DNA of 64,000 nucleotides, taken from assembly GCA_030648715.1 (NCBI GenBank), contig JAUSGZ010000014.1, positions 1,055 to 65,054 on the forward strand. Direction: 5' to 3'. Below, in pieces: positions 27,902 through 55,227 of this stretch; positions within the stretch are counted from its first letter, which is position 1, and the number at the start of each line of letters is the position of its first letter. The notes under the pieces are model-generated. The model saw nothing but the letters and a program-made list of their open reading frames with translations, made no database searches and was not told the DNA's origin. This DNA is from a bacterium. Its GTDB lineage: Bacteria; Patescibacteriota; Patescibacteriia; Buchananbacterales; GWA2-38-13. The position numbers and the translations under genes were made by a program.

Positions 27902-27915
27902 TAAATTTTGGGGGC

Positions 27916-27951
27916 AAAAAAATCCCGACAATGTTACACTGTCGGGATTTT
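27916..27951. terminator. bidirectional rho-independent terminator
   Basis: aaaaaaatcccgacaatgttacactgtcgggatttt. Confidence 0.65.
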
Positions 27952-27977
27952 GGTTCACGAAAGAGCTTACCTCCCTT

Positions 27978-39259: not shown

Positions 39260-39304
39260 GAATCCTTGAGTATGCTACTATTGACCCTGTATTTTGGCGC
39301 AGCT

Positions 39305-40090
39305 ATGGACCAAATCCAGCTCCACGAAAACTTGCGGCGCACGATGATCCGCATCGCGCACGCCAGTAAATCGGGCCATACCCACATCGGATCGTGCTTG
39401 TCGTGCATCGACATCGTAGCACAAACGATACTATTTGAAATGCGGCGAAACGACAAATTCATCCTCTCGAAAGGCCATGCTTCGCTGGCGCTGTATGTTG
39501 TGTTGCGCGAAAAAAAGCGGATCACCGACGAAATGCTGGACAGCTATTTTTGCGACGGCGGGCATTTCGGCATCCATCCGCCGTCATCACTCCCTGACGA
39601 CATCCCATTGCCGACCGGCAGCCTCGGACACGGGCTGTCATTCGGCTGCGGCGTCGCCAAAGGATTCCTCTACCGGCGAAAAAAGCCGCTGCCGCGCGTA
39701 TTCGTCCTGCTCTCTGATGGTGAATGCAATGAAGGCGCCGTCTGGGAGGCGGCAATGTTTGCCAGCCACCACCAACTGAACAATTTGGTCGCCCTGATCG
39801 ACCGCAACGGCTGGCAGGCCTTCGGCCGGACGAAAGAAGTGTTAGGCGACGCGGCGGCCCCGGACAAATGGCGGGCGTTCGGATTCAATACCTACCGCGT
39901 GAACGGCCACCGAATTTCCGACCTGCAGGCGGTATTCAAAAATATCCGCGTTAACCGCAACGGCAAACCGCACGCAGTCATCTGCGATACCGTGCGGGGC
40001 AAGGGCATTAAAACTCTACACGACCAGCTGCACTCCAATTATACGACCGTGGATACCGCCATGCTGCTGCAGGCGACGGGTTCCCACTAG
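39305..40090 (+). CDS. transketolase, N-terminal (TPP-binding) subunit of a split transketolase
   Basis: About 261 aa from MDQIQLHE. GH(T/A)HIGSCLS, LSKGHASLALY, SLGHGL, LLSDGECNEGAVWEA (TPP-binding GDG-like). The upstream part of the long +ORF is antisense to the methyltransferase and was discarded. Confidence 0.8.
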   Translation: MDQIQLHENLRRTMIRIAHASKSGHTHIGSCLSCIDIVAQTILFEMRRNDKFILSKGHASLALYVVLREKKRITDEMLDSYFCDGGHFGIHPPSSLPDDIPLPTGSLGHGLSFGCGVAKGFLYRRKKPLPRVFVLLSDGECNEGAVWEAAMFASHHQLNNLVALIDRNGWQAFGRTKEVLGDAAAPDKWRAFGFNTYRVNGHRISDLQAVFKNIRVNRNGKPHAVICDTVRGKGIKTLHDQLHSNYTTVDTAMLLQATGSH

Positions 40091-40091
40091 T

Positions 40092-40997
40092 ATGCGGGTT
40101 GCTTTCGCCAAATCTTTTTTGACGGTCGCCGCCAGAGATCCGCGCGTGATCTTTTTGACCGGCGACCTCGGATTCAACGCGTTCGAGCCGCTACAGCGCC
40201 GGCTGAAGAACCGCTTCATCAACGCCGGGGTCGCCGAACACAACATGGTGACCGCGGCGGCGGGCTTGGCCTATACGGGGTTGCAACCATGGGTGTACAG
40301 TATCGCGCCGTTCGTCACGATCAAGGTGGTGGAAGAGATCCGCAACGACATCTGCCTGCAAGGCGCCAACGTGAAGATCGTCGGGCTGGGCGGCGGCTAT
40401 GACTATGGCCTGGCCGGGCCGACGCACCACGCGCTTCAGGACGTAGCCGCGATCCTGTCATTGCCCAACATCAAGGTCTACGCGCCAGGGTTCGCGCAGG
40501 ATGTGGCGGTCATTGTCGGAAAAATGCACCGGGAGAAAACGCCGGCGTACCTGCGGCTGACGAAGGGCCAGCCCACGGACCTGCGGCTGCCGCCCTATGC
40601 ACCGAGCCGCCGTATTGCGAAAGGCGCCAAGATGACGGTCGTCGCCCTGGGCTCCATCGCGAGACCGATTTGCGAGCTGGTCGCGCAAAAGGCCGTGCCG
40701 GCGGGGACCATTGACCTGTGGGTGGTCTCCGAACTGCCGCAAGAACTTCCGCCACAGCTGTTCCGATCCATCCGCCAGACCAAAACCCTGGCCGTCGTGG
40801 AGGAACACGTAAAAACCGGCGGTTTGGGGCAGTGGATCGCCCACACGCTCATTGAGCGCGGCATCCCGGTTTCCCGCTTCATCCATCTGTATGCCAAGGG
40901 GTATGCCACGAAACGCTACGGCAGCCACGAGTTCTATCTGCGACAGACCGGACTGGACAAGGGAAGCATTGCGCGGACGCTCCGCCGCTCCCTGTAA
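40092..40997 (+). CDS. transketolase, C-terminal (pyrimidine-binding) subunit
   Basis: 301 aa. FINAGVAEHNMVTAAAGLA, IAPFVT, GPTHHALQDVA are typical of the transketolase central/C-terminal domain. The start is 1 nt after the N-subunit stop. Confidence 0.8.
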   Translation: MRVAFAKSFLTVAARDPRVIFLTGDLGFNAFEPLQRRLKNRFINAGVAEHNMVTAAAGLAYTGLQPWVYSIAPFVTIKVVEEIRNDICLQGANVKIVGLGGGYDYGLAGPTHHALQDVAAILSLPNIKVYAPGFAQDVAVIVGKMHREKTPAYLRLTKGQPTDLRLPPYAPSRRIAKGAKMTVVALGSIARPICELVAQKAVPAGTIDLWVVSELPQELPPQLFRSIRQTKTLAVVEEHVKTGGLGQWIAHTLIERGIPVSRFIHLYAKGYATKRYGSHEFYLRQTGLDKGSIARTLRRSL

Positions 40998-41032: not shown

Positions 41033-41971
41033 TTGAAACTGCGCGGTCCCATCGCTGTTTTCGGCGCCGGCGGTTTTGTCGGGGTTAATTTGCTGCAAAC
41101 GCTGCGGGAACAACGTTCGGACGTCATCGGTTATTCCCAAGCGCCCGCCAGATCCTGGCGGCTCCGCCAGGCCAAGATCCCAACGACCTGCCTGGAAAAA
41201 ATTGACCTGCTGCAGCCCGCGCAGCTTGCCCGTACGTTGGCGCGTCACCGGCCCCAGACGGTCTTCAACCTCGCGGCCTACGGCGCCTACGCCAAACAAA
41301 AGGATATCGCCAAGATCCACGCCACGAATTTTCTCTCCACGGTCAACTGCCTGGAGCTCCTGAAACGGCGCGGATTTGCAGCTTACCTCCACGCCGGTTC
41401 CCAATCGGAGTATGGGCTCAATGCCGCCGGACCGCGCGAGGACGCCGAGCTGGTCCCCAACAGCCACTACGCCGTCTCCAAGACCGCCGCCTACTACCTA
41501 ATGAAATACTACGGGAAGGTGGAACGATTGCCGGTCGCCCATGTCCGCCTCTACTCGGTGTACGGCCCGTGGGAAGAACCCGACCGGTTGATCCCCACCC
41601 TCATCCGCGCGGCGAAACAAAAAAAGTTGCCGCAGTTCGTCGCGGCCGACATTTCCCGCGACTTCGTGTACGTCGACGACGCCGTGGCGGCCCTTATCGC
41701 GGTGGCGGCCACCCTGCAGCGGAAAAACTACGGGGAGGCCTTCAATATTGCGACCGGTACGAAGACCACGATGCGCGAGCTGGCGGCCCTGACCAAGGAG
41801 CTGTTTTCCATCCCGCAGCGGCCGGCGTTCGGCACCATGCGCAACCGCGGCTGGGACGTCCGTGATTGGTACGGGAACCCGGCCAAGCTGCAGCGCACCA
41901 CCGGCTGGAAGGCGGCAACGACGCTCGCCCAGGGCCTGAAGCGCTGCTACGACCATGCAGGACGCGCCTGA
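41033..41971 (+). CDS. NAD-dependent epimerase/dehydratase (extended SDR)
   Basis: 312 aa. VFGAGGFVGVNL, YAVSKTAAY (YxxxK). Confidence 0.75.
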   Translation: MKLRGPIAVFGAGGFVGVNLLQTLREQRSDVIGYSQAPARSWRLRQAKIPTTCLEKIDLLQPAQLARTLARHRPQTVFNLAAYGAYAKQKDIAKIHATNFLSTVNCLELLKRRGFAAYLHAGSQSEYGLNAAGPREDAELVPNSHYAVSKTAAYYLMKYYGKVERLPVAHVRLYSVYGPWEEPDRLIPTLIRAAKQKKLPQFVAADISRDFVYVDDAVAALIAVAATLQRKNYGEAFNIATGTKTTMRELAALTKELFSIPQRPAFGTMRNRGWDVRDWYGNPAKLQRTTGWKAATTLAQGLKRCYDHAGRA

Positions 41972-42665
41972 ATTTTCCATTGTCTTTCCGGTCCTCAACC
42001 AGGAAGACCACATTGAACGCGTCATCCGCGCCTACCATGCGGCGCTGCAAGACGCCAATTTTTCGTTTGAATTGATCCCCGTGGTCAACGGAACCACCGA
42101 CCGCAGCTACGCCATCTGCCAGCAGCTGGAGCGGACACTCCCGGAAATACGCGCGTTCCGGCTGCAGGGAGCCGGGTACGGGCTGGGCATTCTCCACGGG
42201 CTGGCGCAGGCAAGAGGGAAGTACCTCGGCTACCTCAACTGCGCCCGTATCACGGCGGAAGACCTCGTGATGTGCTTGCGGCAATTCCAGACCAACCCGG
42301 CGGCTATCGTACATGGAGTGCGCGTCCAGCGGAGCGCGGTGCAGCGTACGATCCTGTCGGTCGGCTACAGCACGCTCTGCCGGCTCATTTTCCGGCTCAA
42401 GACCTCGGACGTGAATGGCAACCCCAACTTTTTCTCGCGCCTGTGGTACGAGAAGTTCCACCTGCGCAGCACCGACAGCATGATCGACGTGGAGTTGCAG
42501 GACAACGTGGGCAAGGCCGACGCGCCGCTCATCGAAGTCCCCATCCACAGCTACCGGCGGCACGGCGGCATCTCCACGACGACATTCTGGACCACGTTCC
42601 GGCTGCTGAAAGAGGGAATCCACTACTGGTGGAGAACAAGGATCCTAAAAAACGACCAACGGTAA
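41955..42665 (+). CDS. family 2 glycosyltransferase (GT-A)
   Basis: 236 aa. FSIVFPVLNQEDHI is a GT2 N-terminal signature. Overlaps the epimerase stop, suggesting translational coupling. Confidence 0.75.
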   Translation: MQDAPEFSIVFPVLNQEDHIERVIRAYHAALQDANFSFELIPVVNGTTDRSYAICQQLERTLPEIRAFRLQGAGYGLGILHGLAQARGKYLGYLNCARITAEDLVMCLRQFQTNPAAIVHGVRVQRSAVQRTILSVGYSTLCRLIFRLKTSDVNGNPNFFSRLWYEKFHLRSTDSMIDVELQDNVGKADAPLIEVPIHSYRRHGGISTTTFWTTFRLLKEGIHYWWRTRILKNDQR

Positions 42666-42694
42666 AAAAACCGCCCGCTCGGGCGGTTTTTTTA
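42664..42694 (+). terminator. rho-independent terminator
   Basis: aaaaaaaccgcccg-ctc-gggcggttttttt. Confidence 0.7.
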
Positions 42695-42777
42695 CCGACC
42701 CCCGTTGACAAATCCAGCCGTCGTTGCCATACTTGCTACGGCGTTTCCCAACCGCGGTTCTTTTACGGAGGTACAGA

Positions 42778-43004
42778 TGGCCTACGAACATTTGAACGAT
42801 GAACAACTGCGACAGCGGATCAAGGAGCTCGAAGCGCAAGGCTTCACCGGCTTGAACAACGCCGAACTCCACCTGCTGAATATCGCGCAGACGTCCCGCA
42901 TGTCTGACGCGGATCTGCTGGCGAAAATCCGCGAACGCCGCGCTCAGGGCAAACCAACCGGCAAGCTCGAAGCCGCCGCCCGCCAACGCGGGCTTTCCAT
43001 CTAG
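42778..43004 (+). CDS. small hypothetical helical protein (75 aa)
   Basis: MAYEHLNDEQLRQRIKELEAQGF... RBS ggagg 8 nt upstream. Bracketed by two terminators. A longer alternative start at 42705 lacks an RBS. Confidence 0.5.
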
Positions 43005-43024
43005 CACACTCGCACGCACCCCCA

Positions 43025-43057
43025 GAGGCTGGCACACCCAGCCTCGCATTTTTTTAT
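43025..43057. terminator. bidirectional rho-independent terminator
   Basis: gaggctgg-cacac-ccagcctc followed by gcattttttta. Confidence 0.6.
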
Positions 43058-45120
43058 TCCTCGAGCTGCGCGGAGATCAGCCGATAAATATCCAGCGTCT
43101 CCAGCTGCTCAGACAATACGTACGCGGACGGCAGCATCGTGCGGAAAAGATTCAATTCGTTGGCCCGCTGCCGCTGGAAATCATCGAAGGCGTCGCGGCC
43201 GTTGCCGACCAGCACGGCTTCGGGCTGCAGGCGAGTAACGGCGTCCGCCAGCACCCGCAGGTCGGCGGGCGTGTAGAGGTTGAAACTGTAATACACCGGC
43301 AGCGCGTTCACTTTACCCGCATAGTAAAGGAGTTTGCTGTCGTTGATGTGCACGAGCGCCACCCGCGATCCCGCAAACTCGCGAGCGATGATTTCCGCAT
43401 CACGGACCAGCACGTCTTCGTTGGCGGGGACGCGGCGGAAACTGGCGGCGACCGCGGCGTAGTCACGGTTGCCGAATTCTACCGGCAGCTTGACCAGGAT
43501 GAGCCCGAGGAAGAACGCCGCGACCGCGTATGCACCGGCAGCCGCCAGACGGCGGGACGACCCCGCCAGTTGGGGAAGGTAACGGTCGACCAGGACGGCA
43601 ATGACCACCACCCACGGCCAGGCGACAAAATACAGTTGCTGCCAGGTAGATTCGCCAATGTAGTACACCATCGAGAGCGCACCGTAGGCGGCAATAAAAA
43701 GCAGCGGCCCATCCAAGGGCATGCCGCTCAACAGTCTACGCGCCTGTGCGACCAGCACGGCAAGATAGGTGAGCACGAGCACCTGGAAAAGTCCGAACAT
43801 CGGCAGCGGGGACACGAAGTATCCCTGGGTCACCTGCCGGAGCTCACGCAGGTAGTGCAACCAATCCGGCGCAGCACCCACGGTAACGATGTTGGCCAGC
43901 GTGATCATCCCGAATACCGCCGCCGCGAACGCAAGGTAGATACCCCCCAGCCGCCGGACTCGCGAAAGCAGCGGCGCGGAACTGGAAGCTGCGAGGGAAA
44001 TCAGCACGGCGCCGCCCACCGCCAGCCCGGTATCCAAATTCCAAAAAAGCGCCAATGCCGCCCAGGCCAGCGCCAAGCGCGCCGACGCCCAGCGACCGTG
44101 CCGGGCAAACGACTGCACGCACCACCACGCCGGCACCACCAGCCAGAACCGGAACGGGGTCATGGCGGGGAAGAGGTACGCGCTGCGCGTCGGGCTGGTC
44201 TGGAACAACAACAGAAGCGCAAACACCGCCAGCGTCGTTACCGCGGCCAGTACGGACGACGTCAGCGACCGCCGCAGCACGGCAAATAGGCCGGCCAAGA
44301 ACCCAAAAAATACGACCGCCAGCAGCAGCGAGAACGCCGGATACGCGAAAGGCAGCACCCAGCGGAATATGGCGGAGATCGCGTAGTGGTTCAGCACCCC
44401 GTACAAACTGGACGTCTCATACAGCAGCGCCTTGCCATGCAGCTGGTCGTTGACCGGCGCCAAAAAATAGTTGTAGTGATGGTAGTCGACGGGGAAATTC
44501 GGATGCCACACGAGCAACGCGAGCAAGGGTAGCAGCAGCCACCACCCGCGCGCGAAGGCCCGGTCCACGAATGGCGGAACACGCACGGGCAGCGGGCGAC
44601 GGGAAAACGCGTACGCGGCGGCAAAAACGACCGCGGCCACGCCGACCAGGGCAACGGACGAAAACAGCCGTTTCGTGGTTAGCAGCCACAGCGCGCGGCC
44701 AAGCCCACGCGCCTGCACGTAGCCCAGCGCCGTTGAAAAAAATCCTGCCAATTTTCCGACCGGCGCAACGGGGGCAAGTGTGAAAACGACGAGCACCGCG
44801 CCAGCCACGACGACCCACCGCCGCGCCGAGCGGGGCACCGCGGCCGCGCAACGCTCCAACACCCATTTGCCCGCGAAGGCCAAGATGGGGATGACCAGGT
44901 ACCCGGCCAAGTAGAGCGGGATCTCATACGGCTCGGGATGCAAAAAACCCGGCCCGAAACTGGCAAACAGCGTCGGGGGCCGGTGGAATCCCCGGTACAG
45001 GTAATCCTGCAGCAGCCGCGCGCCCGCGAAGTAACCGACAACGGCCGCCGCCAGCCCCCAAAAAAAATACGCTCCGCGACCGCGGTTGAGCGCTAACAGC
45101 CATGACGTACGGGGCACCAT
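43054..45120 (-). CDS. large polytopic membrane protein of unknown family (paralog A; N-terminal ~12 TM + ~250-aa C-terminal soluble domain). Possible GT-C-type glycosyltransferase/polymerase.
   Basis: 688 aa. Shares collinear similarity with the 49994..52063 product, e.g. HPEPYEIPLYLAGYL / LPEPWEMPLFLAGYL, LWLLTTKRL, LYETS..YG.LN.YA. Confidence 0.65.
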   Translation of the reverse strand: MVPRTSWLLALNRGRGAYFFWGLAAAVVGYFAGARLLQDYLYRGFHRPPTLFASFGPGFLHPEPYEIPLYLAGYLVIPILAFAGKWVLERCAAAVPRSARRWVVVAGAVLVVFTLAPVAPVGKLAGFFSTALGYVQARGLGRALWLLTTKRLFSSVALVGVAAVVFAAAYAFSRRPLPVRVPPFVDRAFARGWWLLLPLLALLVWHPNFPVDYHHYNYFLAPVNDQLHGKALLYETSSLYGVLNHYAISAIFRWVLPFAYPAFSLLLAVVFFGFLAGLFAVLRRSLTSSVLAAVTTLAVFALLLLFQTSPTRSAYLFPAMTPFRFWLVVPAWWCVQSFARHGRWASARLALAWAALALFWNLDTGLAVGGAVLISLAASSSAPLLSRVRRLGGIYLAFAAAVFGMITLANIVTVGAAPDWLHYLRELRQVTQGYFVSPLPMFGLFQVLVLTYLAVLVAQARRLLSGMPLDGPLLFIAAYGALSMVYYIGESTWQQLYFVAWPWVVVIAVLVDRYLPQLAGSSRRLAAAGAYAVAAFFLGLILVKLPVEFGNRDYAAVAASFRRVPANEDVLVRDAEIIAREFAGSRVALVHINDSKLLYYAGKVNALPVYYSFNLYTPADLRVLADAVTRLQPEAVLVGNGRDAFDDFQRQRANELNLFRTMLPSAYVLSEQLETLDIYRLISAQLEE

Positions 45121-45486
45121 AATTGACAGGGGAATCCTTCACCACTATACTAGGGATTCTGTTCTCTCAAAAGAGCGGATGACCGCGTCGGGCAATTTCG
45201 GAAAAGGGGACGCTTTCCCCTGCCAGCGCCTACCAAGCAGCAAGGGTTCTCTCCTTGCGACCGCCCCAACGTCCGGCAGACGTGCCTACGCCCGTCAATG
45301 TTTTGCACGGCGGGCGAAAGCGCATCGGAGTATGCAGAGGCAAACGCCGGTTTCCTTACCGGCGCTGACGAAGAGGTGCGCTGCAGTGACGCGCGCGGTA
45401 CCTACCCGTATTCCGAGGGTCAGTCTTGGCCGTTCTCCGCTCTTTCTTTGCCGCGCCCGTTGGGATTCTTCCCGACGGGCGTTTTT

Positions 45487-46728
45487 TCATGCCGCGTAAT
45501 GGCGTTCCAATTTCTCCAGCCAGCGGGGAGCACTGAATTCCGCGACTGCGCGCGCATGGCCCGCAGCACCCATGCGCGCGGCCAGCGCGGGATCGGAAAA
45601 CAAACGGACGATACGGTCAGCCAGCGCGTTGGCATCGTATGGATTGACGATGAACCCGGTCTGGCCGTCAATCACAGCCTCGCGGCTGCCGCCGAAACAC
45701 GTCGCGATCACCGGCTTGCCGGCAGCCATGGCTTCCAAATTCACCGAGGGGAACGAATCAAAACACACCGAAGGTACGACGACCGCCGCGCACGCAGAAT
45801 AGGCGGTCACCATATCCTGGGACGAGAGCTGGCCGGCAAACCGGACGCGGTCGGAAACCCCGTACTGCTGCGGCAGCCGCTGGTAGCTGCCGGCCCCGCC
45901 CTCGGCACTGCCCGCGATCAGCAGCGCGGCATCAGGAACCGTTTGGGCGGCGGCCGCGAGCGCGGCCAAGATCTGGTTGATGCCCTTGGCGCCCGAGATC
46001 CGCCCCGGGAACAGCAGCACGCGGCGGCCGGCAAGATCGAAACGGCGGAGCAGCTCCTCGGTCACGGCCGGCGGCCGCGGCGTCCATGGGGTAAGGTCAA
46101 TGCCATTATGCACGACCGCGACGTTGGTAATGCCGTTATCGGCCAGCGCGTCGGCCAATGCTTGAGAGACAGCCAGTACCTTGGTGATGCCGTTGAGGCG
46201 GCGGCGGATGACGGCGTTGCGGAATGGATTGAAACGTTTTTTCGCCGTGCGCAGATTCACGAGCCACGACGTCCGATACTTCGGCCGGAGCGGGCAATCT
46301 CTGCGCGCGGGATCAATGAAATGGGTCAGTTTGGCGTAGGCAAAACTCTGCACGTCGTGGGTGGTCAGAAAAACTTTCGGCGCAGACCGCCGCGCTGCCT
46401 CCAGACAGCGATAGGAAAGCGCCTGGTAGATATTGTGCGCATGGACAATGTCCGGCTTGAGCCGATGCAAAGCGGCGGCTACCGGCCGCACGGCGGCCGG
46501 ATGGTGCAGCCCCAAGTACGCACCCCAGCGGGGGTGAAATGGAGTTGCCACCACGTTGACGGCGACCCCGTCGACGGGCTGCCCGCTTGCCGTCAGCACG
46601 GTGACCTGATGGCCACGGCGAGAAAGACCGATGGCGTGCTGGTAGCACACGCCCAGCGCCCCGCCGAGCGCGGGGGCGAATTGGTCGGCCAAGATCACCA
46701 CCCGCATACCCGGTAGTACAATGGGCAA
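45487..46728 (-). CDS. family 4 glycosyltransferase (GT-B, group 1)
   Basis: 413 aa. C-terminal DSFPSVNLEAMAAGKPVIAT (EX7E-type GT4 motif). Confidence 0.8.
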   Translation of the reverse strand: MPIVLPGMRVVILADQFAPALGGALGVCYQHAIGLSRRGHQVTVLTASGQPVDGVAVNVVATPFHPRWGAYLGLHHPAAVRPVAAALHRLKPDIVHAHNIYQALSYRCLEAARRSAPKVFLTTHDVQSFAYAKLTHFIDPARRDCPLRPKYRTSWLVNLRTAKKRFNPFRNAVIRRRLNGITKVLAVSQALADALADNGITNVAVVHNGIDLTPWTPRPPAVTEELLRRFDLAGRRVLLFPGRISGAKGINQILAALAAAAQTVPDAALLIAGSAEGGAGSYQRLPQQYGVSDRVRFAGQLSSQDMVTAYSACAAVVVPSVCFDSFPSVNLEAMAAGKPVIATCFGGSREAVIDGQTGFIVNPYDANALADRIVRLFSDPALAARMGAAGHARAVAEFSAPRWLEKLERHYAA

Positions 46729-46816
46729 ATAAATCGTGCCCGCCTTATACCATAATAATTACAAGACCCATCTTCTGGCTTCCTCATAAATCCATTGTAC
46801 TATCGGGCATACCCTG

Positions 46817-48547
46817 TTACGCGGTTTTTTCCACCACCAAATTACCCAGCACCAGCACATCCAGTTCGCTCTGCAGGTACGCGCTGATGGCCTCTTCGGG
46901 CGTGCACACGATCGGCTCCTCATGCATGTTGAAGCTGGTGTTCACGAGACTCGGCAGGCCGGTCAGCTGCTCATAGTGTTTCAAGACATCGTAGTACACC
47001 GCATTGATCTCGCGGCTGACCAGCTGTGGCCGGCAGGTTCCGTCCACGTGCACGGCCGCGGGCATTTTGTCGCGCATGAACTTCGTCGCCGGCAAGGCAA
47101 TGGTCATGAAAGTGGCCGCAGCTCTGCAGCGATCGGTCAATTCATAGCAGTCGGCAGCTTTCTCCATTAGGGTGACCGGCGCGAACGGCATAAACTCGCT
47201 GCGCTTGAGCCGCTTGTTCAGCCAATCGTTCACCTCGGGGTCGGTCGCCGGATACAGAATGGAACGGTTGCCCAGTGCGCGCGGCCCGTACTCCATCGCG
47301 CCCTGGAAAAAACCAACGACCTTGTTCTCGGCCAGGCGCGCGGCGGTCCAGGCAGCCACGTCGCCCTCGCGCCGGAAGGAAAGCCGAGCTGCCGTCAGCG
47401 CGGCCGTACAGCGCCGCTCATCGAACGCCGGGCCGAGGTACACGTGCGGAATTGCCTGCGGAGTCAACGGGTGCTTTTGTGCCAGGGCTCCCAACGCCGC
47501 CCCTAAGGCCTGACCCACGTCGCCCATACCGGGATGCACGAACACTTCCTTGAGCGGCAGCTGCCGCAGGAACTCCAGATTCAGCTTGACGTTGGCAACC
47601 ACGCCGCCCGACAGGGCCAACCGCTCGAACGGCATTTGCTTTTGCCACGCGGAAAGCACGCTGACGCAGACGTCCTCCAGCCGGCGCTGGAACGCCGCCG
47701 CGATATCCTCGCGGGTGTGGCCGGAAAACACCACCGGCAGTTTTTTCCCGCGCGCAAAGTACTCCTCATGCAGCACGAACAGCTCCGGGCTGACTTTCAT
47801 CGTGGTGCCCTCGGCCCACAACAACCGGTTCACCACGGGAGCGAGTTTCGTGGGATCGCCGAATGCCGCCAGCCCCGTGATCTTGCCGCCGTGCTTCTTG
47901 GGATGGAACCCCAGGATCCGCGTCACCACCTCGTAGTAACGGCCCGGGCTGTGCGGCAAGGGTACCGTACCGACTTTCTGCAGCCGACCGTTCGCACCGC
48001 GCCAGAACGAGCACGTATTGGTAAAACTGGAACCCTCGATGATGGCGACGAAACAATCCGTAAAACCGGAAGTGAAATACGCGGTGGCGGCGTGCGCTTC
48101 GTCATGGTCGACGAACGTGACCTCGCCGGCGAATCCCTGCTGGCGCAACTCGTCAATCAGCTGCTGTGTCGCCTTGCCCACGCGCCACGTCTCCAGTATG
48201 GCTGCCAAACCGGTTTGGCGCAGCAGCCTCCCGCGGTCGCGGCTCTTGAGCGTATAGAAGGAGTGTAGGTAGCGGCCGCGCGTGAACGTGACCCGCTGCG
48301 CCTGCTGGATAAAGTTGTACCAGTACTTGCGCGGCCCCGGCCGCAGGCCGGAGAACGCGACCACATCCAACTCGCGCGGCGCGACGCCCGCGACCGCGAA
48401 CACCGCGGCCATGGACTGGCGGGGCGGCGCACCATCCATCTTTGTACGGGAAAAACGCTCTTCGTTGGCCGCCGCCAACACGCGGCCGTCCTCCACGATA
48501 GCGGCACCGCTGTCGTGCGTATCCAAATGAATGCCAAGGATTTTCAT
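46817..48547 (-). CDS. carbamoyltransferase (NodU/CmcH family)
   Basis: 576 aa. MKILGIHLDTHDSGAAIV N-terminal Kae1/ASKHA-like carbamoyltransferase domain plus a C-terminal YrdC-like carbamoyltransferase domain. Confidence 0.8.
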   Translation of the reverse strand: MKILGIHLDTHDSGAAIVEDGRVLAAANEERFSRTKMDGAPPRQSMAAVFAVAGVAPRELDVVAFSGLRPGPRKYWYNFIQQAQRVTFTRGRYLHSFYTLKSRDRGRLLRQTGLAAILETWRVGKATQQLIDELRQQGFAGEVTFVDHDEAHAATAYFTSGFTDCFVAIIEGSSFTNTCSFWRGANGRLQKVGTVPLPHSPGRYYEVVTRILGFHPKKHGGKITGLAAFGDPTKLAPVVNRLLWAEGTTMKVSPELFVLHEEYFARGKKLPVVFSGHTREDIAAAFQRRLEDVCVSVLSAWQKQMPFERLALSGGVVANVKLNLEFLRQLPLKEVFVHPGMGDVGQALGAALGALAQKHPLTPQAIPHVYLGPAFDERRCTAALTAARLSFRREGDVAAWTAARLAENKVVGFFQGAMEYGPRALGNRSILYPATDPEVNDWLNKRLKRSEFMPFAPVTLMEKAADCYELTDRCRAAATFMTIALPATKFMRDKMPAAVHVDGTCRPQLVSREINAVYYDVLKHYEQLTGLPSLVNTSFNMHEEPIVCTPEEAISAYLQSELDVLVLGNLVVEKTA

Positions 48548-48560
48548 ATCGCAATGTTGG

Positions 48561-49943
48561 TTACGCCGGAACGGCGGGGAACGGCGGCGCTACCAGCCGC
48601 CTCCGCAGCCACCAAAAATAGGCAAAACCCAAAAAGTTGGGGACGAACGTGAACAGCAGCGTCGCAATGACCAGCCCGCGGATGGCCGACGCGTTGATGA
48701 GATACCACGACAGCGGCAGGAGCGTCAGGAGCGTGAAGACCTGGATGGCAACATTCACCCGCATCCGGTTGAGGGTACGAAACATCGCCGCCAGCCCGAC
48801 ACCCCCGGCGACCAGGAGCGGATAAGGGGAGAGCGCCATGATGAACGGCAGCGCCGGCCCGTAGGCGGGGAACAGCGCGTTGATGAACACGGGTGCCAGC
48901 AGGATCGCCGGCAGCAAGACCACCAGTTCCATCAGGAGGGTCAAACCGGTGATCTGGTAGAACCGTTTGAACAGCTTACTGTTACCGGCCACCTCGGTCT
49001 TGGGGAACTGGTCGTTGAGCAGGCGCGCAATGGGATCAGCAAAGACCAGCGGCAGCCCGACGTAGGTGAACGCGACCTTGAAGAACCCCAGCCCGGAGGT
49101 CGTCGGCAGCACCGCGCCCAGCATCAGCAGCGGCACGGTCTGGTTGACCTTCAAAATATTCTTGCTGATGGCGATCAAAAAACCGAAACGGAAATAATAG
49201 GATATCTTTGGCCACGGCACCCGGGTCCGCCACAGGTCGGAAAGCCCGACCGCGGTACCGGCGCGCACATAGCGGCGGTAGATGAACGCCGCGGCGATGC
49301 TGGCCCCTACCATCAGGAGGAACTGACCGCCAATGATGGCCATCACCCCGCCGCCCAATAACACCCAGGCGACGGTCACCACGGCGCCGATGATCTTGCT
49401 GCCCGTCTCCAGCACGGCCAGCGGGATGAGCTCGCGACGGATCTGCTGCAAGGTCGTCACCAGGGGAACGAAGAAGGTCAGCGCGAACGTGAGCACGCCC
49501 AAGGCCGCGTACCAGCCCACCATCGGGTCATGGTACCAGCGCTCCCCCAGGAACGGTGCTGCCAGCATCCCCGCCACGCCCGCCGTCGCGCCGATCGCCA
49601 CCGTTGTTTTCAAAAAATAGGCGAGCACGTCCCGCGCTTCCGCACGGTCGCTTCTTGCCTCGGCGCGCGCCAGCAGGTTCACGATGGCATGGCCCATGCC
49701 GAATTCCTGAAAGACATTGAGGAATGCCGCCAAGGTCGTTGCCAGCGTATACAGGCCGTAATCTTCCGGGCCCAGCAGGTTGGCAAACAGGATGCCCGTC
49801 AGGATGCCAACACCTTTGCTGATGATGCCGGCCGCCTGCAGGATTGCCGAATGCCGCGCGAACGGATGTTTCAGCGCGAACCGCAGCCGTTGATGCGTTT
49901 GGGCGAACACAAAAGCGAGGGATAGATGACCAAACCCCCGCAC
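48561..49943 (-). CDS. polysaccharide/oligosaccharide flippase (MOP superfamily, Wzx-like)
   Basis: 460 aa, about 12-14 TM, with a periodic hydrophobic pattern and spacing typical of Wzx/MurJ-like transporters. Confidence 0.6.
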   Translation of the reverse strand: MRGFGHLSLAFVFAQTHQRLRFALKHPFARHSAILQAAGIISKGVGILTGILFANLLGPEDYGLYTLATTLAAFLNVFQEFGMGHAIVNLLARAEARSDRAEARDVLAYFLKTTVAIGATAGVAGMLAAPFLGERWYHDPMVGWYAALGVLTFALTFFVPLVTTLQQIRRELIPLAVLETGSKIIGAVVTVAWVLLGGGVMAIIGGQFLLMVGASIAAAFIYRRYVRAGTAVGLSDLWRTRVPWPKISYYFRFGFLIAISKNILKVNQTVPLLMLGAVLPTTSGLGFFKVAFTYVGLPLVFADPIARLLNDQFPKTEVAGNSKLFKRFYQITGLTLLMELVVLLPAILLAPVFINALFPAYGPALPFIMALSPYPLLVAGGVGLAAMFRTLNRMRVNVAIQVFTLLTLLPLSWYLINASAIRGLVIATLLFTFVPNFLGFAYFWWLRRRLVAPPFPAVPA

Positions 49944-49993
49944 CGCGAAGGAGGGGGCGCTCTAGCTACTGTAGCGTGCCGCAAACGCCAGGG

Positions 49994-52063
49994 TCAATCC
50001 CGCCCAGGAGCGCGAACAGGCCGGTAGATCTGCAACGTTGCCCACGATTCCGCCGGCGCATACTGGCCGTCGATCGCCGCCATGAAGTACGGCCGATAGG
50101 GAAAATCCTCATTGCCGATGAGTAGGTACTCGGGGCGCTCGCGGCGCACCTGGTCGGTCAGCCGCTGCAGGTTCCAGTCGAACACCACGTCCAGCTGGTC
50201 GTAAATGGGAAACCAGTTGGTGCGGCGCGACAGCAGGAGCAGCTGGCCGTCATTGGCGTGCACCAGCGGCGGCCGGCTGCCGGGCAGGAACTCGGCTGCG
50301 ATGCGCTCCGCATCCGCCAGCAGTTCGGGGGTGTCGGCGCTCGCTTGAGGACGCAACCGCTGGGTAATGTCCCGGTAGTTGCGCGTGCTGAAAAGCACGG
50401 GCAGCTTCGCAGCAACGATCAGCGCGACAAAGGCCGCGAGCGCAACGAAGGCCCGTGCCGCGAGGGGCTCATGCGGCCCGCGGGTATAGGCGGCAAACAG
50501 GTACAGGTCGGAAACCAGGTACAGCAGCACGAACACCAGCGGCGTGCTGATCGGGTACAGGTAGCTCCAGGCTGAATTGCCGACATAGTAGGTGACCGAT
50601 AGCGCGCCGTAGGTCAAAAGGAAAAGGAATGTTGCATCGACCTTCCGCCCGACCGCCCAACGCCGCAGCACCAGCACCCCCGCCGCCAGGTAGGTCAGCA
50701 CATACCATTCGAACATCCCGACCGCCGGCATGGGCAATTTGCTGATGCCCGTCCGGTAGACGGCCATGGCATCGCGGTAGAGGGAGAAGTTCGGCCACGC
50801 CCCGTAGTACCAGAAGTTGCCGACCGCCACCGCGGAAAAACCCAGCGCCAAATACGCCGCCTGCCGCAGGCCGGTCGCCAGCAGCCGCCGCAGCAGCACC
50901 TTCGGGCTCAGACTGGAAAGTTGAATTGCCGCCGCGGCCACCACCGTTGCCGCCGCGATGGCCAAACCGGAATCCAGGTTCCACACGGCCGCCACCGCCG
51001 CGAGCTGCAACGGCAAGTCGCGACGCCACCAGGGAAGCTGCGGCCGGCGGCTGACAAACAATACCGCCGCCGCGACCAGTACGTACCAGCCCTGGCGATA
51101 CGGCGTCGTGCCCGGGTAGTGCACCGAGGAAAGGAACGGCCCGGCCTGCAGGAGGAAATAGGTACCAACGGCGGTCGCCGTGCCAAGCAGCGCCAACAAC
51201 CGCGAATGCAGCCAGCGCTTCAACAGCGCATAACTGAAGGCGAAAAAGAAAAAATAACTGACCGACAGGACCAGGGAAAGTGCTTGGTAGCTGAGCGGTA
51301 CGATTTTGAACAGCGCGACCAGCGCGTAGGTATTCAAGATCCCGTATTGGTTGGTAGTTTCATAGAGGAACGGTTTGCCGGCGAGCACGTCGTTGACCGT
51401 ACCGATGACGTGGTTGGCGTGACGTTGCTCATACGGAAATGACGGATCAAAAATGATGACGGCCAGCAGCACCAGCAGCCACGGCTCCAACCTGGCAATC
51501 CACCGCGGGTCGGCGTGCCGCTTCAGCCAATGAAAACTCGCCTGCCGCCAGCGCCAGGATAAGAAGAGGAACACCGCCACGCTCACGCCCAGCGCCAGCC
51601 GCACGGCGTACAGCCGTTTCGTGGTCAAGAGCCACAAAGCATGCCACACGCCGACGCGCTCCAGGTAGCCGGCGACGAACGCCGCGCGCTCGGAGATCAG
51701 GGGCGAAAATCGCCACCCCAGAGCAACGGCCAGCACGGCCACTGCTGCGAGCATTCCCAGCCGGAGCCGGACGCTCGGCCGCGGCCAGCGCCGCACCCGC
51801 GTGAAGGCCGACGAGATCGGATAGTACAACACCAAGGCGATCAACGGGATCGCCAGGTAACCCGCCAAAAATAACGGCATCTCCCAAGGCTCGGGCAAAA
51901 CCTCGAATGTGGAGAGCTTGTGCGCGACCGCCCACCGGTCCACGGGCAGCACGCGGTCCTGCAAGAAGCGGGAAGCGGCAAAATACCCCAAGGTCGTTGC
52001 AGCCAACGCCGCAAGCGCCGGCGGCCAGCGAAACGTTCCAAGAAATGCGCGGGCATTGAACAT
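49994..52063 (-). CDS. large polytopic membrane protein of unknown family (paralog B)
   Basis: 689 aa. Collinear with 43054..45120 (see above). Confidence 0.65.
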   Translation of the reverse strand: MFNARAFLGTFRWPPALAALAATTLGYFAASRFLQDRVLPVDRWAVAHKLSTFEVLPEPWEMPLFLAGYLAIPLIALVLYYPISSAFTRVRRWPRPSVRLRLGMLAAVAVLAVALGWRFSPLISERAAFVAGYLERVGVWHALWLLTTKRLYAVRLALGVSVAVFLFLSWRWRQASFHWLKRHADPRWIARLEPWLLVLLAVIIFDPSFPYEQRHANHVIGTVNDVLAGKPFLYETTNQYGILNTYALVALFKIVPLSYQALSLVLSVSYFFFFAFSYALLKRWLHSRLLALLGTATAVGTYFLLQAGPFLSSVHYPGTTPYRQGWYVLVAAAVLFVSRRPQLPWWRRDLPLQLAAVAAVWNLDSGLAIAAATVVAAAAIQLSSLSPKVLLRRLLATGLRQAAYLALGFSAVAVGNFWYYGAWPNFSLYRDAMAVYRTGISKLPMPAVGMFEWYVLTYLAAGVLVLRRWAVGRKVDATFLFLLTYGALSVTYYVGNSAWSYLYPISTPLVFVLLYLVSDLYLFAAYTRGPHEPLAARAFVALAAFVALIVAAKLPVLFSTRNYRDITQRLRPQASADTPELLADAERIAAEFLPGSRPPLVHANDGQLLLLSRRTNWFPIYDQLDVVFDWNLQRLTDQVRRERPEYLLIGNEDFPYRPYFMAAIDGQYAPAESWATLQIYRPVRAPGRD

Positions 52064-52069: not shown

Positions 52070-54448
52070 CTACTGCTGGGTGAAGATATCGCGCCAGGCG
52101 CGATCCAAGGAATATGTGAATTCAAGCTGATGGTCGCCCTGCGGCACCCGAACGGCCTGCAACAGATAGTTGGCAGGATAGTGCGCCGTCGGAAGGCCGT
52201 CCAGCGCCGCCGTCCAGCCCGGCAGGTTGGCGTAGCCGAAGATGAACCACGCATCCGCAGCGGCGCGCACCGCGAACCGGTACCGCGCGGTTGACGCTTC
52301 CAGCACCTGCACCGTACCCGTCGCCGAGGATACCGGGCAGTCCGCGCATTCGAGGAGCACGGCGTTCTGCAACTGCGGCTGGTGGTTTAAAAATGCCTGC
52401 CAGGCATCCGCGTCATTGGCAACGGCGGTGGCCTGCACCGCAGGAGCAAAATAGGAGCGCGGCTGCACGGTCGTTAACCGGTAGACGTAGAGCGGCAGCT
52501 GGCGGGTGGTTACATCCAAAGTTGCGACGAGCGTCAGGTCGGGGTGCGGCAGCGGGTAGAGGCTCACGATGGTACCGACGTTGAATGCGGCCAGCACGGG
52601 CAATCGTTCTAAAAATTTCGCGCGCTTTTCTTCAAAACTGATATCCAGCGTGGCCAGCTGCTCGCCGGCCGTGCCGCGGCTGGAGCCCAGGTACGACAGG
52701 ACGCGGGCGCTGCGGCGGTCCATGATGTTGTCGTAGTAGTCCAGGCCGTCGCTGCCATCCAGGAGCTGAAGGTTGGCAGAACCCAATGCGCGATGGAGCG
52801 AGATGTTATCGTCCGGCGCGTAACCAAAAGGGACATCAAGCTGCTGATACACAGAGGAACCGGGGAGAAAAGAAAAAAAGCGTTCGCCGGGCGGCACTGA
52901 CCAGCCCGGTGCAATACGCAGCACGCGCGCGTCGGCGGTCGGCAGCGCCGAGAACGCCAACGGCGCGAGGTTCCCCGCGGTCAACGCCAACGCGAAAACC
53001 GCGAATGCTCCGACCGCTATCCTGCCGTTGGCGACACTACGCAGCAGCCATCCGGCAACCGCCAAAGATGCGATCGCGAGTGCAGTGGGAAAAGACCAGA
53101 CCGTGACGCCGCCGGCCACCTGGCGCAGCAGCTCATCAAGCACCTGGTGATAGTGGGAGATCGGCAGCCCCGTAGTGCGCGCGTACCAAAAGCGGTCAAA
53201 CAGCGCGAATGCCGCCGAACGCAGCGGCGCCGCCGCGACCAGCCAGATGGCAGACAGCCCAACCAGTACCGCGACGACGCGCGCCGTCCAGTGGCTGACG
53301 CGCCGCGCCGTGATCCGCCACGCCTCATCCTTGCCGGCGACAATGACATCCAGACCCGCGGCGGCCACAAACGCAGCCGCGACATTCCCAACATACATCC
53401 AGCGCGCCGACGCGCGGAATAAGGAGAATACGGGCAGCCGGTTCACGAGCCACGCGAGGGGCGAACCCGACCAGGCCAGGAGCAGGCTCCCCAACAACCC
53501 CCACCAGGCGACGCGTACTCGCCAGTCGCGCAGCCGCAATCCCAAAATTGCCAGCAAGAACGGCAACGCTCCCATGTACAAGAAACCGGGGGTGGAGGTC
53601 AGCCGCGGCAGCGCAACGCGCGGCAGCAGCCAGCTGGAAAGATCCAGCAACCGCAGCCCGCCCTCGCCGCTCGCACCTGAATTCAGCCGCGCCGAAAGCC
53701 GCGCGAAAGCCAAGGTGGGCAGCAGCAGCGGCAGCGCCATGACGGCCGCGGCCGAAAACAGCGCGACTGTTCCCGCGAGCGTCTGCCAGCGTTGCGCCCG
53801 CCAGGAAAGTGCTGCGGCGAACGCGAACACCGCGGTGCCGTACACCAACGGCCACTGCAGGTGGCCGACGTGCAGGCTGTGTGCAAAGATCAGCGCGCCG
53901 CCGGCAACCATTGCCCACCATCGCGCCTGCCGCACCGACGAGCAGTGCAGGTGCCACACGCACAGCAAGAGCGCGGGGAACGTCCAATAGGTCACGCTGA
54001 CGGTGATATTGCCGGCAAACCCGAGCAGCGCGGGAGACAACGGAACAACCAGCGCTGGCAGTGCCGCCGCCGGACGGCCGAACCCGAGCGCGCGCGCCAA
54101 TCCGTAGGTGCACAGCGCCGTCAGCACAAAGCTCGCCCCCGTCAGCCAGGCGTAGACGGTAATGACGTCGAACGTCGAAAACAGCCACTGCTGCAAGGGC
54201 GAACGCAAGCCGCCGAGGGTGCTGGCCGCGGTCGGGAACCCGGCCAGGACGTGCGGGTTGAAATCCACGGACTGGCCCGCGCGCAGTACGCGCTGCAGCC
54301 AGGTCAGGATGGGATAGAATTGCAGCACCGCGTCGCCGTCCGCGAACACCCGTCCGAAGAACAACACCGGGGAAAAAACGGCGACCACGACAGCCAACGG
54401 GAACGCCAGCCACCCCAAGGAACGCACTCGGGCAACAGCACCCATAAG
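52070..54448 (-). CDS. YfhO-like large polytopic membrane protein (putative glycosyltransferase acting with the GtrB-like GT2)
   Basis: About 792 aa from MGAVARVRSLGWLAFPLAVV (the ORF-track start at 54562 would overlap the upstream gene by 107 nt). Many TM helices throughout. FYP-containing N-terminal region. Confidence 0.6.
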   Translation of the reverse strand, partial: LMGAVARVRSLGWLAFPLAVVVAVFSPVLFFGRVFADGDAVLQFYPILTWLQRVLRAGQSVDFNPHVLAGFPTAASTLGGLRSPLQQWLFSTFDVITVYAWLTGASFVLTALCTYGLARALGFGRPAAALPALVVPLSPALLGFAGNITVSVTYWTFPALLLCVWHLHCSSVRQARWWAMVAGGALIFAHSLHVGHLQWPLVYGTAVFAFAAALSWRAQRWQTLAGTVALFSAAAVMALPLLLPTLAFARLSARLNSGASGEGGLRLLDLSSWLLPRVALPRLTSTPGFLYMGALPFLLAILGLRLRDWRVRVAWWGLLGSLLLAWSGSPLAWLVNRLPVFSLFRASARWMYVGNVAAAFVAAAGLDVIVAGKDEAWRITARRVSHWTARVVAVLVGLSAIWLVAAAPLRSAAFALFDRFWYARTTGLPISHYHQVLDELLRQVAGGVTVWSFPTALAIASLAVAGWLLRSVANGRIAVGAFAVFALALTAGNLAPLAFSALPTADARVLRIAPGWSVPPGERFFSFLPGSSVYQQLDVPFGYAPDDNISLHRALGSANLQLLDGSDGLDYYDNIMDRRSARVLSYLGSSRGTAGEQLATLDISFEEKRAKFLERLPVLAAFNVGTIVSLYPLPHPDLTLVATLDVTTRQLPLYVYRLTTVQPRSYFAPAVQATAVANDADAWQAFLNHQPQLQNAVLLECADCPVSSATGTVQVLEASTARYRFAVRAAADAWFIFGYANLPGWTAALDGLPTAHYPANYLLQAVRVPQGDHQLEFTYSLDRAWRDIFTQQ

Positions 54449-54455
54449 GCTAATA

Positions 54456-55223
54456 TTAGCGTTGCGGAGGGGGCGGCACCCGGCGGCGGAAACGGTAGTA
54501 GAGCAGATTGCGCAAAAATTCCCAGATCGCCGACGGCGGCACGAACGACGCCCGCCGCTCATTCTTATAAAAAATGGTGGAAACCTCTCCGACCTTCAAT
54601 TTCAGCCGCAAGGCCTCGAGCATGATCTCCGCATCCGTGAACCAGTCGTTGGATAACAGCTGCATCGCCTGGTAGGCGCGGCGCGTCATCACCTTGGGTT
54701 TGGAATTGATGTCGCGGAAACTGGCGGACGGAGGGAACAGCACGCGGAAGAGCAGGTTGTACAATCGGGAAATAGTGGCGCGGTACCGACCATCATGCCG
54801 CTGGGCACGGAAAGTTTTGACCAGGTCGTAGCCGCCCACCTGCAGCACCTGATAGACCTTGACGATATCGCTGGACGGCATCTGGCCGTCGCCGTCAATG
54901 ACCGCGAGATGCCGTCCCGTCGCCGCCTCCAGGCCGGCGCGCATGTCCCAACCCATCATGCCTTCTTTGACGCGGGCGACCACTTTGATGCGAGGGTTGG
55001 CGGCCGCCAGCTCCTGTACGATCTGGGGCGTGCGGTCGGGACTTTCGGCATGGAAATTGGCGACCAGCACCAATTCGTAGTCAAGGTTTGCCTCTTTTAA
55101 TTCGCGGGTCAGCTGCGCCACAAATTCGCGCGCCAATTCTTCGGCGCGGTAGCACAGCACCACAACCGACAGCTCCGGCCCGGCGGAGGGCGTGACCAGC
55201 GTTGTGTGGCGGGCAAGCTCCAT
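54456..55223 (-). CDS. GtrB/DPM1-like family 2 glycosyltransferase (polyprenyl-phosphate sugar synthase-like)
   Basis: About 255 aa from MELARHTT. LSVVVLCYRAEE, DGDGQMP (DxD), C-terminal amphipathic/TM helix. The ORF-track start at 55259 overlaps the SDR gene. Confidence 0.75.
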   Translation of the reverse strand: MELARHTTLVTPSAGPELSVVVLCYRAEELAREFVAQLTRELKEANLDYELVLVANFHAESPDRTPQIVQELAAANPRIKVVARVKEGMMGWDMRAGLEAATGRHLAVIDGDGQMPSSDIVKVYQVLQVGGYDLVKTFRAQRHDGRYRATISRLYNLLFRVLFPPSASFRDINSKPKVMTRRAYQAMQLLSNDWFTDAEIMLEALRLKLKVGEVSTIFYKNERRASFVPPSAIWEFLRNLLYYRFRRRVPPPPQR

Positions 55224-55227
55224 AGTG

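Follow-up and report, generated by a model that had tools for sequence, protein, structure and literature searches.

What do the two large membrane proteins, here called A and B, do in a 64,000-nucleotide stretch of a Patescibacteriota contig (JAUSGZ010000014.1; hereafter the window), where they flank genes for a glycosyltransferase, a carbamoyltransferase and a flippase? Patescibacteria (CPR) are uncultured episymbionts with reduced genomes, whose surface glycans probably mediate host attachment, and to our knowledge almost nothing is known about the synthesis of these glycans. A search of the literature on GT-C enzymes in Patescibacteria/CPR yielded nothing relevant. A sequence-only reading of the window had described A and B as collinear paralogs of about 688 residues belonging to an unrecognised family, and had suggested that they represent a new extracytoplasmic glycosyltransferase, polymerase or ligase.

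A and B are ancient paralogs from a new sequence family

Both open reading frames were found as described (Table 1). In a BLASTP comparison with composition-adjusted scoring, A and B align over 686 residues with 35% identity and 50% positives (E = 3e-78), and an NJ tree places B in the B clade. The shared blocks that had been quoted (PEPxE...LAGYL, LWLLTTKRL, VND.L.GK..LYET and R.ERP/QPE..L[IV]GN) are all present in both proteins and are kept in 13 further homologs. Judged from their sequences, A and B are real, ancient paralogs. The identities of the three genes lying between them were also borne out by Pfam and NCBIfam.

Neither protein matches Pfam at E ≤ 0.1 or NCBIfam at E ≤ 1. Sixty diverse members of the family gave no GT-C family in Pfam at E ≤ 0.01, and A, B and 58 other members matched neither PF13231, PF02366, PF09594 nor any other Pfam family. 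The known GT-C families (PMT, PMT_2, YfhO, STT3, GT87, Glyco_transf_22, Alg6_Alg8, ArnT and others) produced no profile match near the curated threshold. When narrow and wide family profiles were searched against all PDB sequences (E ≤ 10), only noise was recovered (cytochrome oxidase subunit 2, designed proteins), with no GT-C or other glycosyltransferase, and hhalign detected no relationship between the family profiles and a 553-aa DUF6798 membrane protein. At 50% identity the superfamily falls into about 1,760 clusters, whose members are bacterial and come from Patescibacteria and other groups. With the narrow alignment, a search for related loci retrieved nothing beyond Patescibacteria and two MAGs labelled as Gammaproteobacteria; searching for homologs a second time, with the wide profile, brought in few further sequences and no names that were informative. 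The A/B family is a new sequence family with a known fold.

Table 1. Features of the A/B locus. Coordinates are those of the window.
Feature	Coordinates	Strand	Evidence and remarks
Split transketolase	38663..40997	plus	N-terminal ThDP half ORF 38663-40090, Pyr/C half 40092-40997; Pfam and NCBIfam transketolase
NDP-sugar epimerase/4,6-dehydratase	41033..41971	plus	Epimerase E=3e-44; best NCBIfam dTDP-glucose 4,6-dehydratase
GT2a, second small GT2	41955..42665	plus	Glycos_transf_2 E=1e-11; convergent with A
Paralog A	43054..45120	minus	688 aa, A-type member of unnamed GT-C_A family
A residues 555-688, extracytoplasmic alpha/beta C-terminal domain	43057..43458	minus	AF2 strands/helices; conserved D574, R586, D594, N605
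A residues 181-550, GT-C_A transmembrane module	43471..44580	minus	Read as 7 conserved + 4 variable TM helices
A residues 205-259, GT-C first extracytoplasmic loop	44344..44508	minus	Helices 213-227 and 242-254 (AF2 secondary structure)
A D225 codon, proposed catalytic base	44446..44448	minus	Conservation and first-loop helix position
A residues 1-180, N-terminal four-TM add-on	44581..45120	minus	PEPxE (62-66), LWLLxTKRL (144-152); outside GT-C module
GT4 (GT-B fold) cytoplasmic glycosyltransferase	45487..46728	minus	Pfam Glycos_transf_1 E=9e-36
NodU/CmcH-type O-carbamoyltransferase	46817..48547	minus	Carbam_trans_N E=4e-43, Carbam_trans_C E=6e-59; best NCBIfam NodU
MOP-superfamily (Wzx-like) flippase	48561..49943	minus	Polysacc_synt E=6e-21; NCBIfam MOP flippase model
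Paralog B	49994..52063	minus	689 aa, B-type member
YfhO-like 830-aa membrane protein, putative GT-C	52070..54562	minus	Directly upstream of B; weak YfhO E=0.0099, below curated cutoff
GT2b, small soluble GT2	54456..55259	minus	Glycos_transf_2 E=1e-16; best NCBIfam PgfS, ArnC, AglJ, all below cutoffs
Short-chain dehydrogenase upstream of GT2b	55228..55974	minus	adh_short E=2e-32

Predicted fold and domain architecture

The predicted structures of A and B clearly adopt the fold of GT-C membrane-embedded sugar transferases. They superpose on solved GT-C_A enzymes, which are polytopic proteins combining a conserved 7-TM module with a variable module (the class of Alexander & Locher, as cited in PMC10920833 and PMC13503287). 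In order, the module runs from one TM helix through an outward loop that contains two short helices to six further conserved TM helices, and closes with four variable ones. A model without residues 1-180 obtained an equally good score, which assigns the GT-C module to residues ~183-550, followed by an external C-terminal domain of ~135 aa. The PEPxE loop is part of a lineage-specific N-terminal four-helix add-on. PEPxE (E63/E66) was considered as a GT-C catalytic motif and was ruled out by this truncation test, by the conservation census given below and by its loss in a divergent 725-aa paralog from locus L004.

The soluble C-terminal domain proposed earlier does exist, but it is smaller than the ~250 aa first suggested, since a further four TM helices take up residues 440-550. 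The R.ERP/QPE..VGN block, which had been placed at the very end of the domain, in fact occupies residues ~630-640 and is followed by about 50 more residues. A topology count puts the C-terminal domain of A outside the cell, and in distant members CBM96 or Laminin_G_3 domains are appended after it.

Conserved residues and candidate active site

The first loop of A carries the sequence HPNFP..HH..VND..GK..YET..YG, and no other block of the superfamily is as strongly conserved. Among 144 diverse representatives, Y240 and G241 are present in all, G229 in 141, and K230 is conserved as K/R in 138. Residue 225, in the first helix of this loop, is D/E in 133 of the 144; in the C-terminal domain, 111 of 120 aligned sequences have D/E at the position of D594. 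R324 and D363 are, like K230, conserved across the family, whose motif set can be written ND..GK..YG / P..R / WN.[DE]. B keeps D225, K230, Y240/G241, R323, D364 and D605, and even the 725-aa paralog of L004 keeps D225, K230, R324 and D363. The first-loop catalytic acidic residues of the reference enzymes ALG3 and ALG12 are D71 and E35, respectively. In GT-C_A enzymes, the catalytic base (Asp/Glu) is located in the first helix of a two-helix first outer loop (PMC13503287). Conservation and this analogy suggest that D225 is the likely catalytic base of A.

Gene neighbourhood in the window and in related loci

A typical related locus contains one A-type and one B-type copy, single copies being found in L001, L018-L021 and L023. 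L004/L011 derives from a MAG of the Saccharibacteria, a group that has become genetically tractable. The genes that recur in the vicinity encode small GT2s, flippases of the GtrA or MOP type, YfhO-like GT-Cs and, strikingly, a split transketolase. GT2b, a candidate polyprenyl-phosphate sugar synthase from its sequence, shares 74-81% identity with the corresponding proteins of L001, L004 and L010, and the short-chain dehydrogenase is syntenic in L001, L004, L010, L013 and L017. The orthologs of the YfhO-like protein in L004 and L016 likewise show weak YfhO matches. A GT4 gene is located immediately upstream of the A-type gene or of the gene pair in seven independent lineages (window/L007, L001, L009, L012, L015, L016 and L017); in L012, L015 and L016 the B-type copy separates the A-type gene from the GT4. 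L016 additionally encodes a Bac_transf phosphoglycosyltransferase. The split transketolase and family members occur together in window/L007, L001, L004, L015, L019, L020, L021 and L023, and a search for literature on transketolase-containing polysaccharide clusters returned nothing relevant. In the window, the true start of the transketolase ThDP half is probably near 39320. A 134-aa ORF at 42645-43049 was examined as a GtrA-like gene and rejected, as it has no TM helices and no hits and its sequence looks antisense/intergenic. Three PMT_2-type GT-C genes, readily matched by Pfam, are located about 30 kb away in the window.

Discussion

Our analyses lead us to favour, with reasonable confidence, the view that A and B are anciently diverged A- and B-type GT-C_A glycosyltransferases that depend on polyprenyl-phosphate sugars and act outside the cytoplasm. 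From the predicted fold and by analogy with characterised enzymes, their most likely role is to attach sugars to a surface glycan outside the Parcubacteria cell. Our analysis establishes the paralogy, the fold, the conserved residues and the gene surroundings, from which activity, donor type, acceptor and the catalytic roles of the named residues are inferred. A lipid-linked donor is suggested by the context: GT2s resembling PgfS, ArnC and AglJ, GtrA or MOP flippases, and a C-terminal domain predicted to be outside. One of the neighbouring small GT2s would load the polyprenyl-phosphate carrier in the cytoplasm, and flipping would be the task of the MOP flippase, or of GtrA in other lineages. 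By analogy with all GT-C_A enzymes, A and B would then catalyse, at the outer face, an inverting transfer of the sugar from polyprenyl phosphate to a surface glycan or glycoconjugate, with a hydroxyl as the acceptor group. The general base would be D225 in the first loop helix, and phosphate binding would fall to K230 and R324. Pmt1-Pmt2 and EmbA-EmbB work as heterodimers. Since A-type and B-type copies are kept together in most loci, the two proteins probably either form a heterodimer of this kind or each catalyse a step or linkage of their own on one polymer.

The family differs from known GT-C_A enzymes in several respects. ALG3, ALG9 and ALG12 (GT58, GT22), which are eukaryotic Dol-P-Man-dependent ER-lumenal mannosyltransferases, show only 9-12% identity in structural alignment and no detectable profile similarity, whereas the A/B family is bacterial and has an extra N-terminal four-TM module. 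ArnT (GT83), PMT/PMT_2 (GT39), PimE (GT87) and AftA/AftB/Emb (GT53, GT85, GT89) are GT-C_A enzymes of bacteria and fungi that use polyprenyl-P-sugars; the motif set of the A/B family is a different one, and its members give no Pfam match. The loci resemble the three-component YfhO/CsbB/GtcA and GtrA/GtrB/Gtr* systems and the GT136 system (PMC11127046), in which a GT2 loads polyprenyl phosphate, a GtrA or MOP/MATE protein acts as small flippase and a GT-C decorates a surface polymer from the outside. An SDR or epimerase adjoins the GT2 in both cases; in contrast, a split transketolase is a recurrent partner of the A/B family and no feature of those systems. GT136 (the C. youngae ORF12 family) is described as having 11 TM, a catalytic Asp at residue 31 by TM1 and a beta-rich C-terminal CBM, and as closest in sequence to ArnT (PMC11127046). 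Unlike GT136 so described, the A/B proteins have a GT-C module that starts at residue ~183 behind the four-TM add-on, and an alpha/beta C-terminal domain. As for YfhO itself, A and B have no PF09586 match, and an hhalign comparison with the YfhO-like neighbour returned a probability of 0.3%.

A and B might instead be oligosaccharyltransferase-, ligase- or polymerase-like, moving a flipped, GT4-built Und-PP-oligosaccharide (in L016 also involving a Bac_transf initiating enzyme) en bloc to protein, lipid, peptidoglycan or a growing chain. Several observations are consistent with this: the MOP/Wzx flippase and GT4 between A and B, the GT4 directly preceding family genes in seven lineages, the Bac_transf enzyme of L016, OSTs (AglB, STT3, PglB) among the structural matches, and a window operon containing no Wzy or WaaL homolog. 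Wzy/WaaL/SEDS enzymes (GT-C_B; GT119-GT135) are likewise polytopic membrane enzymes in Wzx-containing loci. A and B do not show the combination of a WWDYG motif in the C-terminal domain with closest structural similarity to OSTs that marks the OST class (STT3/PglB/AglB, GT66), and for the GT-C_B class neither a Wzy_C or SEDS profile match nor a fold match was obtained. The earlier proposal is partly supported, and we regard en bloc transfer as rather unlikely.

That A, B or both are inactive GT-C-fold scaffolds or binders of lipid-linked glycans, for instance in a complex where the other paralog or the YfhO-like enzyme does the catalysis, has a precedent in PIG-U/GAB1, non-catalytic GT-C-fold proteins of the GPI transamidase. 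We judge this improbable: A, B and the 725-aa paralog all keep D225, K230, R324 and D363, these residues are conserved across the ~1,760 clusters as expected for an active site, and many loci are single-copy. The window is GC-rich (~62-64% here) with many long spurious antisense ORFs, so that spurious ORFs or shared hydrophobic composition could have produced an artefactual similarity. This explanation has virtually no chance of being correct, being already refuted by the composition-adjusted alignment, by the 13 close homologs and the clusters of relatives, and by the invariance of short polar motifs; the structure predictions are confident as well.

If A and B are indeed GT-C_A glycosyltransferases, at least three different GT-C enzymes (YfhO-like, A and B) would serve extracytoplasmic glycosylation in one Parcubacteria operon. 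Both fold and general mechanism being well known, the finding adds to an established enzyme class and overturns nothing. Annotation pipelines leave the family as 'hypothetical protein'; a name, resting on the motif set and the candidate catalytic Asp, would make ~1,760 clusters testable. The recurrent operon link to the split transketolase points to an undescribed lipid-linked sugar pathway. More speculatively, the family could be the dedicated extracytoplasmic transferase of a distinct pathway, in which an unusual sugar (C2-extended or branched, methylated) would be made by the split transketolase, a methyltransferase and SDRs, loaded on polyprenyl phosphate by the small GT2 and placed on the surface by the GT-C; in Patescibacteria the enzyme would then have gained the PEPxE/KR four-helix module and would act as an obligate A-/B-type pair.

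Two paralogous membrane proteins and their gene neighbourhood

The two polytopic membrane proteins A and B, delimited by the sequence-only reading, were both recovered as open reading frames at exactly the coordinates that it had proposed. As it had also described, they are collinear: BLASTP with composition-adjusted scoring aligned them end to end (35% identity and 50% positives over 686 columns, E=3e-78). A and B are thus true paralogs, and an artefact is excluded. The GT4, carbamoyltransferase and flippase genes reported between them are indeed present.

Features of the A/B region and of protein A (residue numbering of A)
Feature	Position	Strand	Remarks
Split transketolase	38663-40997	+	separate genes for ThDP-binding N half and Pyr/C half
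Paralog A, 688 aa	43054-45120	minus	ORF call
GT4 glycosyltransferase	45487-46728		between A and B
NodU/CmcH-type carbamoyltransferase	46817-48547		between A and B
MOP/Wzx-type flippase	48561-49943		between A and B
Paralog B, 689 aa	49994-52063	minus	ORF call
830-aa YfhO-like membrane protein, small GT2, short-chain dehydrogenase			directly upstream of B
Operon: split transketolase, NDP-sugar dehydratase/epimerase, second small GT2			convergent with A
TM helix opening GT-C module	residues 183-204		predicted helices
Outward loop with two short helices (213-227, 242-254)	residues 205-259		predicted helices
Six more TM helices	up to residue 414		predicted helices
Loop: short helix and low-confidence segment	residues 415-443		predicted
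Four further TM helices	residues 444-550		predicted helices
C-terminal alpha/beta domain	residues 555-688		predicted
D225			D/E in 133/144
G229			141/144
K230			K/R in 138/144
Y240, G241			144/144
R324			138/144
D363			D/E in 141/144
P418			139/144
W420			135/144
Y486			138/144
D594	C-terminal domain		D/E in 111/120 aligned

Related loci from Parcubacteria, Doudnabacteria, Saccharibacteria and metagenomes mostly hold two or three genes of the family, arranged in tandem or convergently; the multi-copy loci are L004/L011 (a Saccharibacteria MAG) and L010, with three each, and L008, L012, L015 and L016. In a neighbour-joining tree, the family genes of related loci fall into an A-type and a B-type clade, and every multi-copy locus contains at least one gene of each type; the duplication is thus ancient and both copies have been maintained. 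This speaks for a division of labour, in which the two types either serve different linkages or steps or form one heteromeric enzyme in the manner of Pmt1-Pmt2 and EmbA-EmbB. A very distant locus (L022) again carries three tandem family members, adjoining an LCP-family ligase and a UDP-glucose dehydrogenase.

The gene order conserved in Patescibacteria is SDR, GT2b, YfhO-like, [B-type], MOP flippase, [methyltransferase], [carbamoyltransferase], GT4, [B-type], A-type. GT2b, the small GT2 near B, is unusually conserved, with 74-81% identity between loci versus 35-50% for the GT-Cs. It has no TM helix, and its best NCBIfam relatives, PgfS, ArnC and AglJ, score far below curated cutoffs; these are all polyprenyl-phosphate sugar synthases. 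Distant superfamily members (18-25% identity) adjoin GtrA in L018 and L020. Close relatives were also found in two MAGs labelled 'uncultured Gammaproteobacteria' (L013 and L014), the L013 copy being 53% identical to B, with the order SDR, YfhO-like, family gene as in Patescibacteria. This points either to mis-binned MAGs or to lateral transfer.

A large sequence family

Neither A nor B matched a Pfam family at E<=0.1 or an NCBIfam family at E<=1, and the family was thus rightly described as unrecognised. When all PDB chain sequences were compared with profiles of 15 close and of 60 diverse homologs, no glycosyltransferase was matched by either. None of the 60 diverse members had a Pfam family over the core; their accessory domains were CBM96, Laminin_G_3 and Disaggr_repeat (one each) and Biotin_lipoyl (three). 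A word-indexed search of 5.8 billion proteins returned only 15 relatives, none with a name and all from Parcubacteria or Patescibacteria where a source was given, the best being 93% identical ('Parcubacteria group bacterium Gr01-1014_31'). When 1.84 billion cluster representatives were searched exhaustively with a profile, 1,763 matched at E<=1e-3, 981 at <=1e-10 and 140 at <=1e-30, which shows that the superfamily is far larger than these 15 relatives. One distant relative from outside the window, a 1330-aa Rhodoferax sp. protein (P0190), combines a family-matching region with a PF09594 domain, which we take to be GT87 (PimE-type GT-C). If so, two different GT-C modules would be naturally fused in this protein.

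Predicted fold and putative active site

Structural neighbours of the fold include PIG-U, ALG6, PimE, Pmt2, AftA, ArnT, AftB, AglB, STT3B, ALG9, PglB, AftD and DPY19. From residue 183 on, the predicted layout of A fits the published description of GT-C_A enzymes, a structural class of membrane-embedded glycosyltransferases. These have a conserved module of seven TM helices and, after it, a variable one; the first luminal loop of the former contains two helices, the first of which bears the catalytic base, and the latter in ALG9 and ALG12 consists of four TM helices and a C-terminal domain on the luminal side (PMC13503287). Judged by charge distribution and number of helices, the N-terminus is cytoplasmic and the C-terminal domain lies outside the cell; the carbohydrate-binding modules attached to distant members agree with this. 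The C-terminal domain spans about 135 residues, not the ~250 aa first suggested, and the R.ERP/QPE..VGN block does not form the protein end as had been thought.

Conservation was counted in 144 representatives of at least 550 aa aligned to the family HMM, and all residues listed in the table are kept in B. Within the GT-C module, D225 lies in the first loop, on its first helix, where GT-C_A enzymes have their general base, and by analogy would be spatially equivalent to ALG3 D71. K230 and R324 may bind phosphate. The PEPxE motif highlighted earlier is present, but it is confined to the approximately 50 of 144 sequences where the N-terminal add-on can be aligned, and the third paralog of the Saccharibacteria MAG has PQPYV instead.

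Recurrent link with a split transketolase

The transketolase, epimerase and GT2 set convergent with A also occurs in L001, L004 and L015. In L019, L020, L021 and L023, distant superfamily members lie in compact operons that also encode a split transketolase (N half and Pyr/C half), a GT2, a methyltransferase and an SDR; the gene order varies slightly, and in L023 stop and start codons overlap. The association, in the window and all of these loci, persists at ~20% identity between GT-Cs. Such recurrence suggests that ketol transfer serves to tailor a lipid-linked or NDP-linked sugar; the literature searched yielded no account of a pathway of this kind.

A 553-aa polytopic membrane protein with a weak C-terminal DUF6798 match (36442-38103, +) is encoded in a low-GC patch (GC 0.45 vs ~0.62 around), just downstream of tRNA-Ala (36268-36341). 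It adjoins the split transketolase in L001, L007 (a Parcubacteria MAG) and L015 at 44-76% identity, and its sequence is unrelated to those of A and B. This protein may act in the same pathway as a further membrane enzyme, so far uncharacterised.

Proposed function

A and B are probably inverting GT-C_A glycosyltransferases. On the outer side of the membrane they would use a polyprenyl-phosphate sugar as donor, and D225 as base, to decorate or lengthen a surface glycan; the transketolase would provide an additional sugar-tailoring step. Their gene context resembles the three-component extracytoplasmic glycosylation systems GtrA/GtrB/Gtr*, CsbB/GtcA/YfhO and GT136, the last with a MATE-type flippase and an auxiliary epimerase (PMC11127046), and differs from them by the transketolase step.

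Among the functions initially envisaged, a new extracytoplasmic glycosyltransferase, polymerase or ligase, the glycosyltransferase is thus the one we favour. An OST-, ligase- or polymerase-like enzyme using a Wzx-flipped Und-PP-oligosaccharide would fit the Wzx and GT4 context, but is unlikely in view of the structural-neighbour ranking, the absence of a WWDYG-type motif, and the occurrence of distant members in GtrA/GT2 operons. That A and B are non-catalytic GT-C-fold subunits like PIG-U is very unlikely, because the putative active-site residues are retained in every paralog.

The GT-C fold, the membrane topology and the logic of the system are all well known, and new GT-C families are still being described, such as GT136 in 2024. 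What is new is a sizeable sequence family unseen by Pfam, NCBIfam and PDB sequence searches, the four-helix N-terminal add-on of its Patescibacteria branch, the stable A-type/B-type pairing and the recurrent split transketolase link. Annotation and the study of CPR surface biology stand to gain from this, although it would not surprise a glycobiologist.

Other features of the window

Three PMT_2 (GT39/ArnT-like) GT-C genes lie ~30 kb from A and B, all on the minus strand (8737-10383, 10350-11651 and 13274-14920). Counting the YfhO-like protein, A and B as well, this 64-kb stretch of a reduced CPR genome encodes at least six putative GT-C enzymes. Neither Pfam nor NCBIfam matches any of three consecutive ORFs at 16890-20313 (-; 277, 566 and 295 aa). 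A second low-GC stretch (24001-28000, 0.42-0.47 vs ~0.6), which holds an SDR epimerase (24906-25928) and a class I/II aminotransferase (25940-27160), may be horizontally acquired.

Gene A and GT4 are separated by a 366-bp intergenic insert (45121-45486) without counterpart in other lineages, where the gap between GT4 and the family gene is ~20-35 bp; the region is 94% identical in L007. No Rfam family and no convincing small ORF were found in it. On its + strand, a near-consensus promoter-like site (TTGACA-17-TATACT, 45123-45151) is followed ~300 nt downstream by a strong terminator-like hairpin (45453-45482, 13-bp stem then T6). The insert folds better than shuffled sequences (z=-3.1 on the + strand, -2.45 on the - strand) and may encode an undescribed ~300-nt structured RNA.
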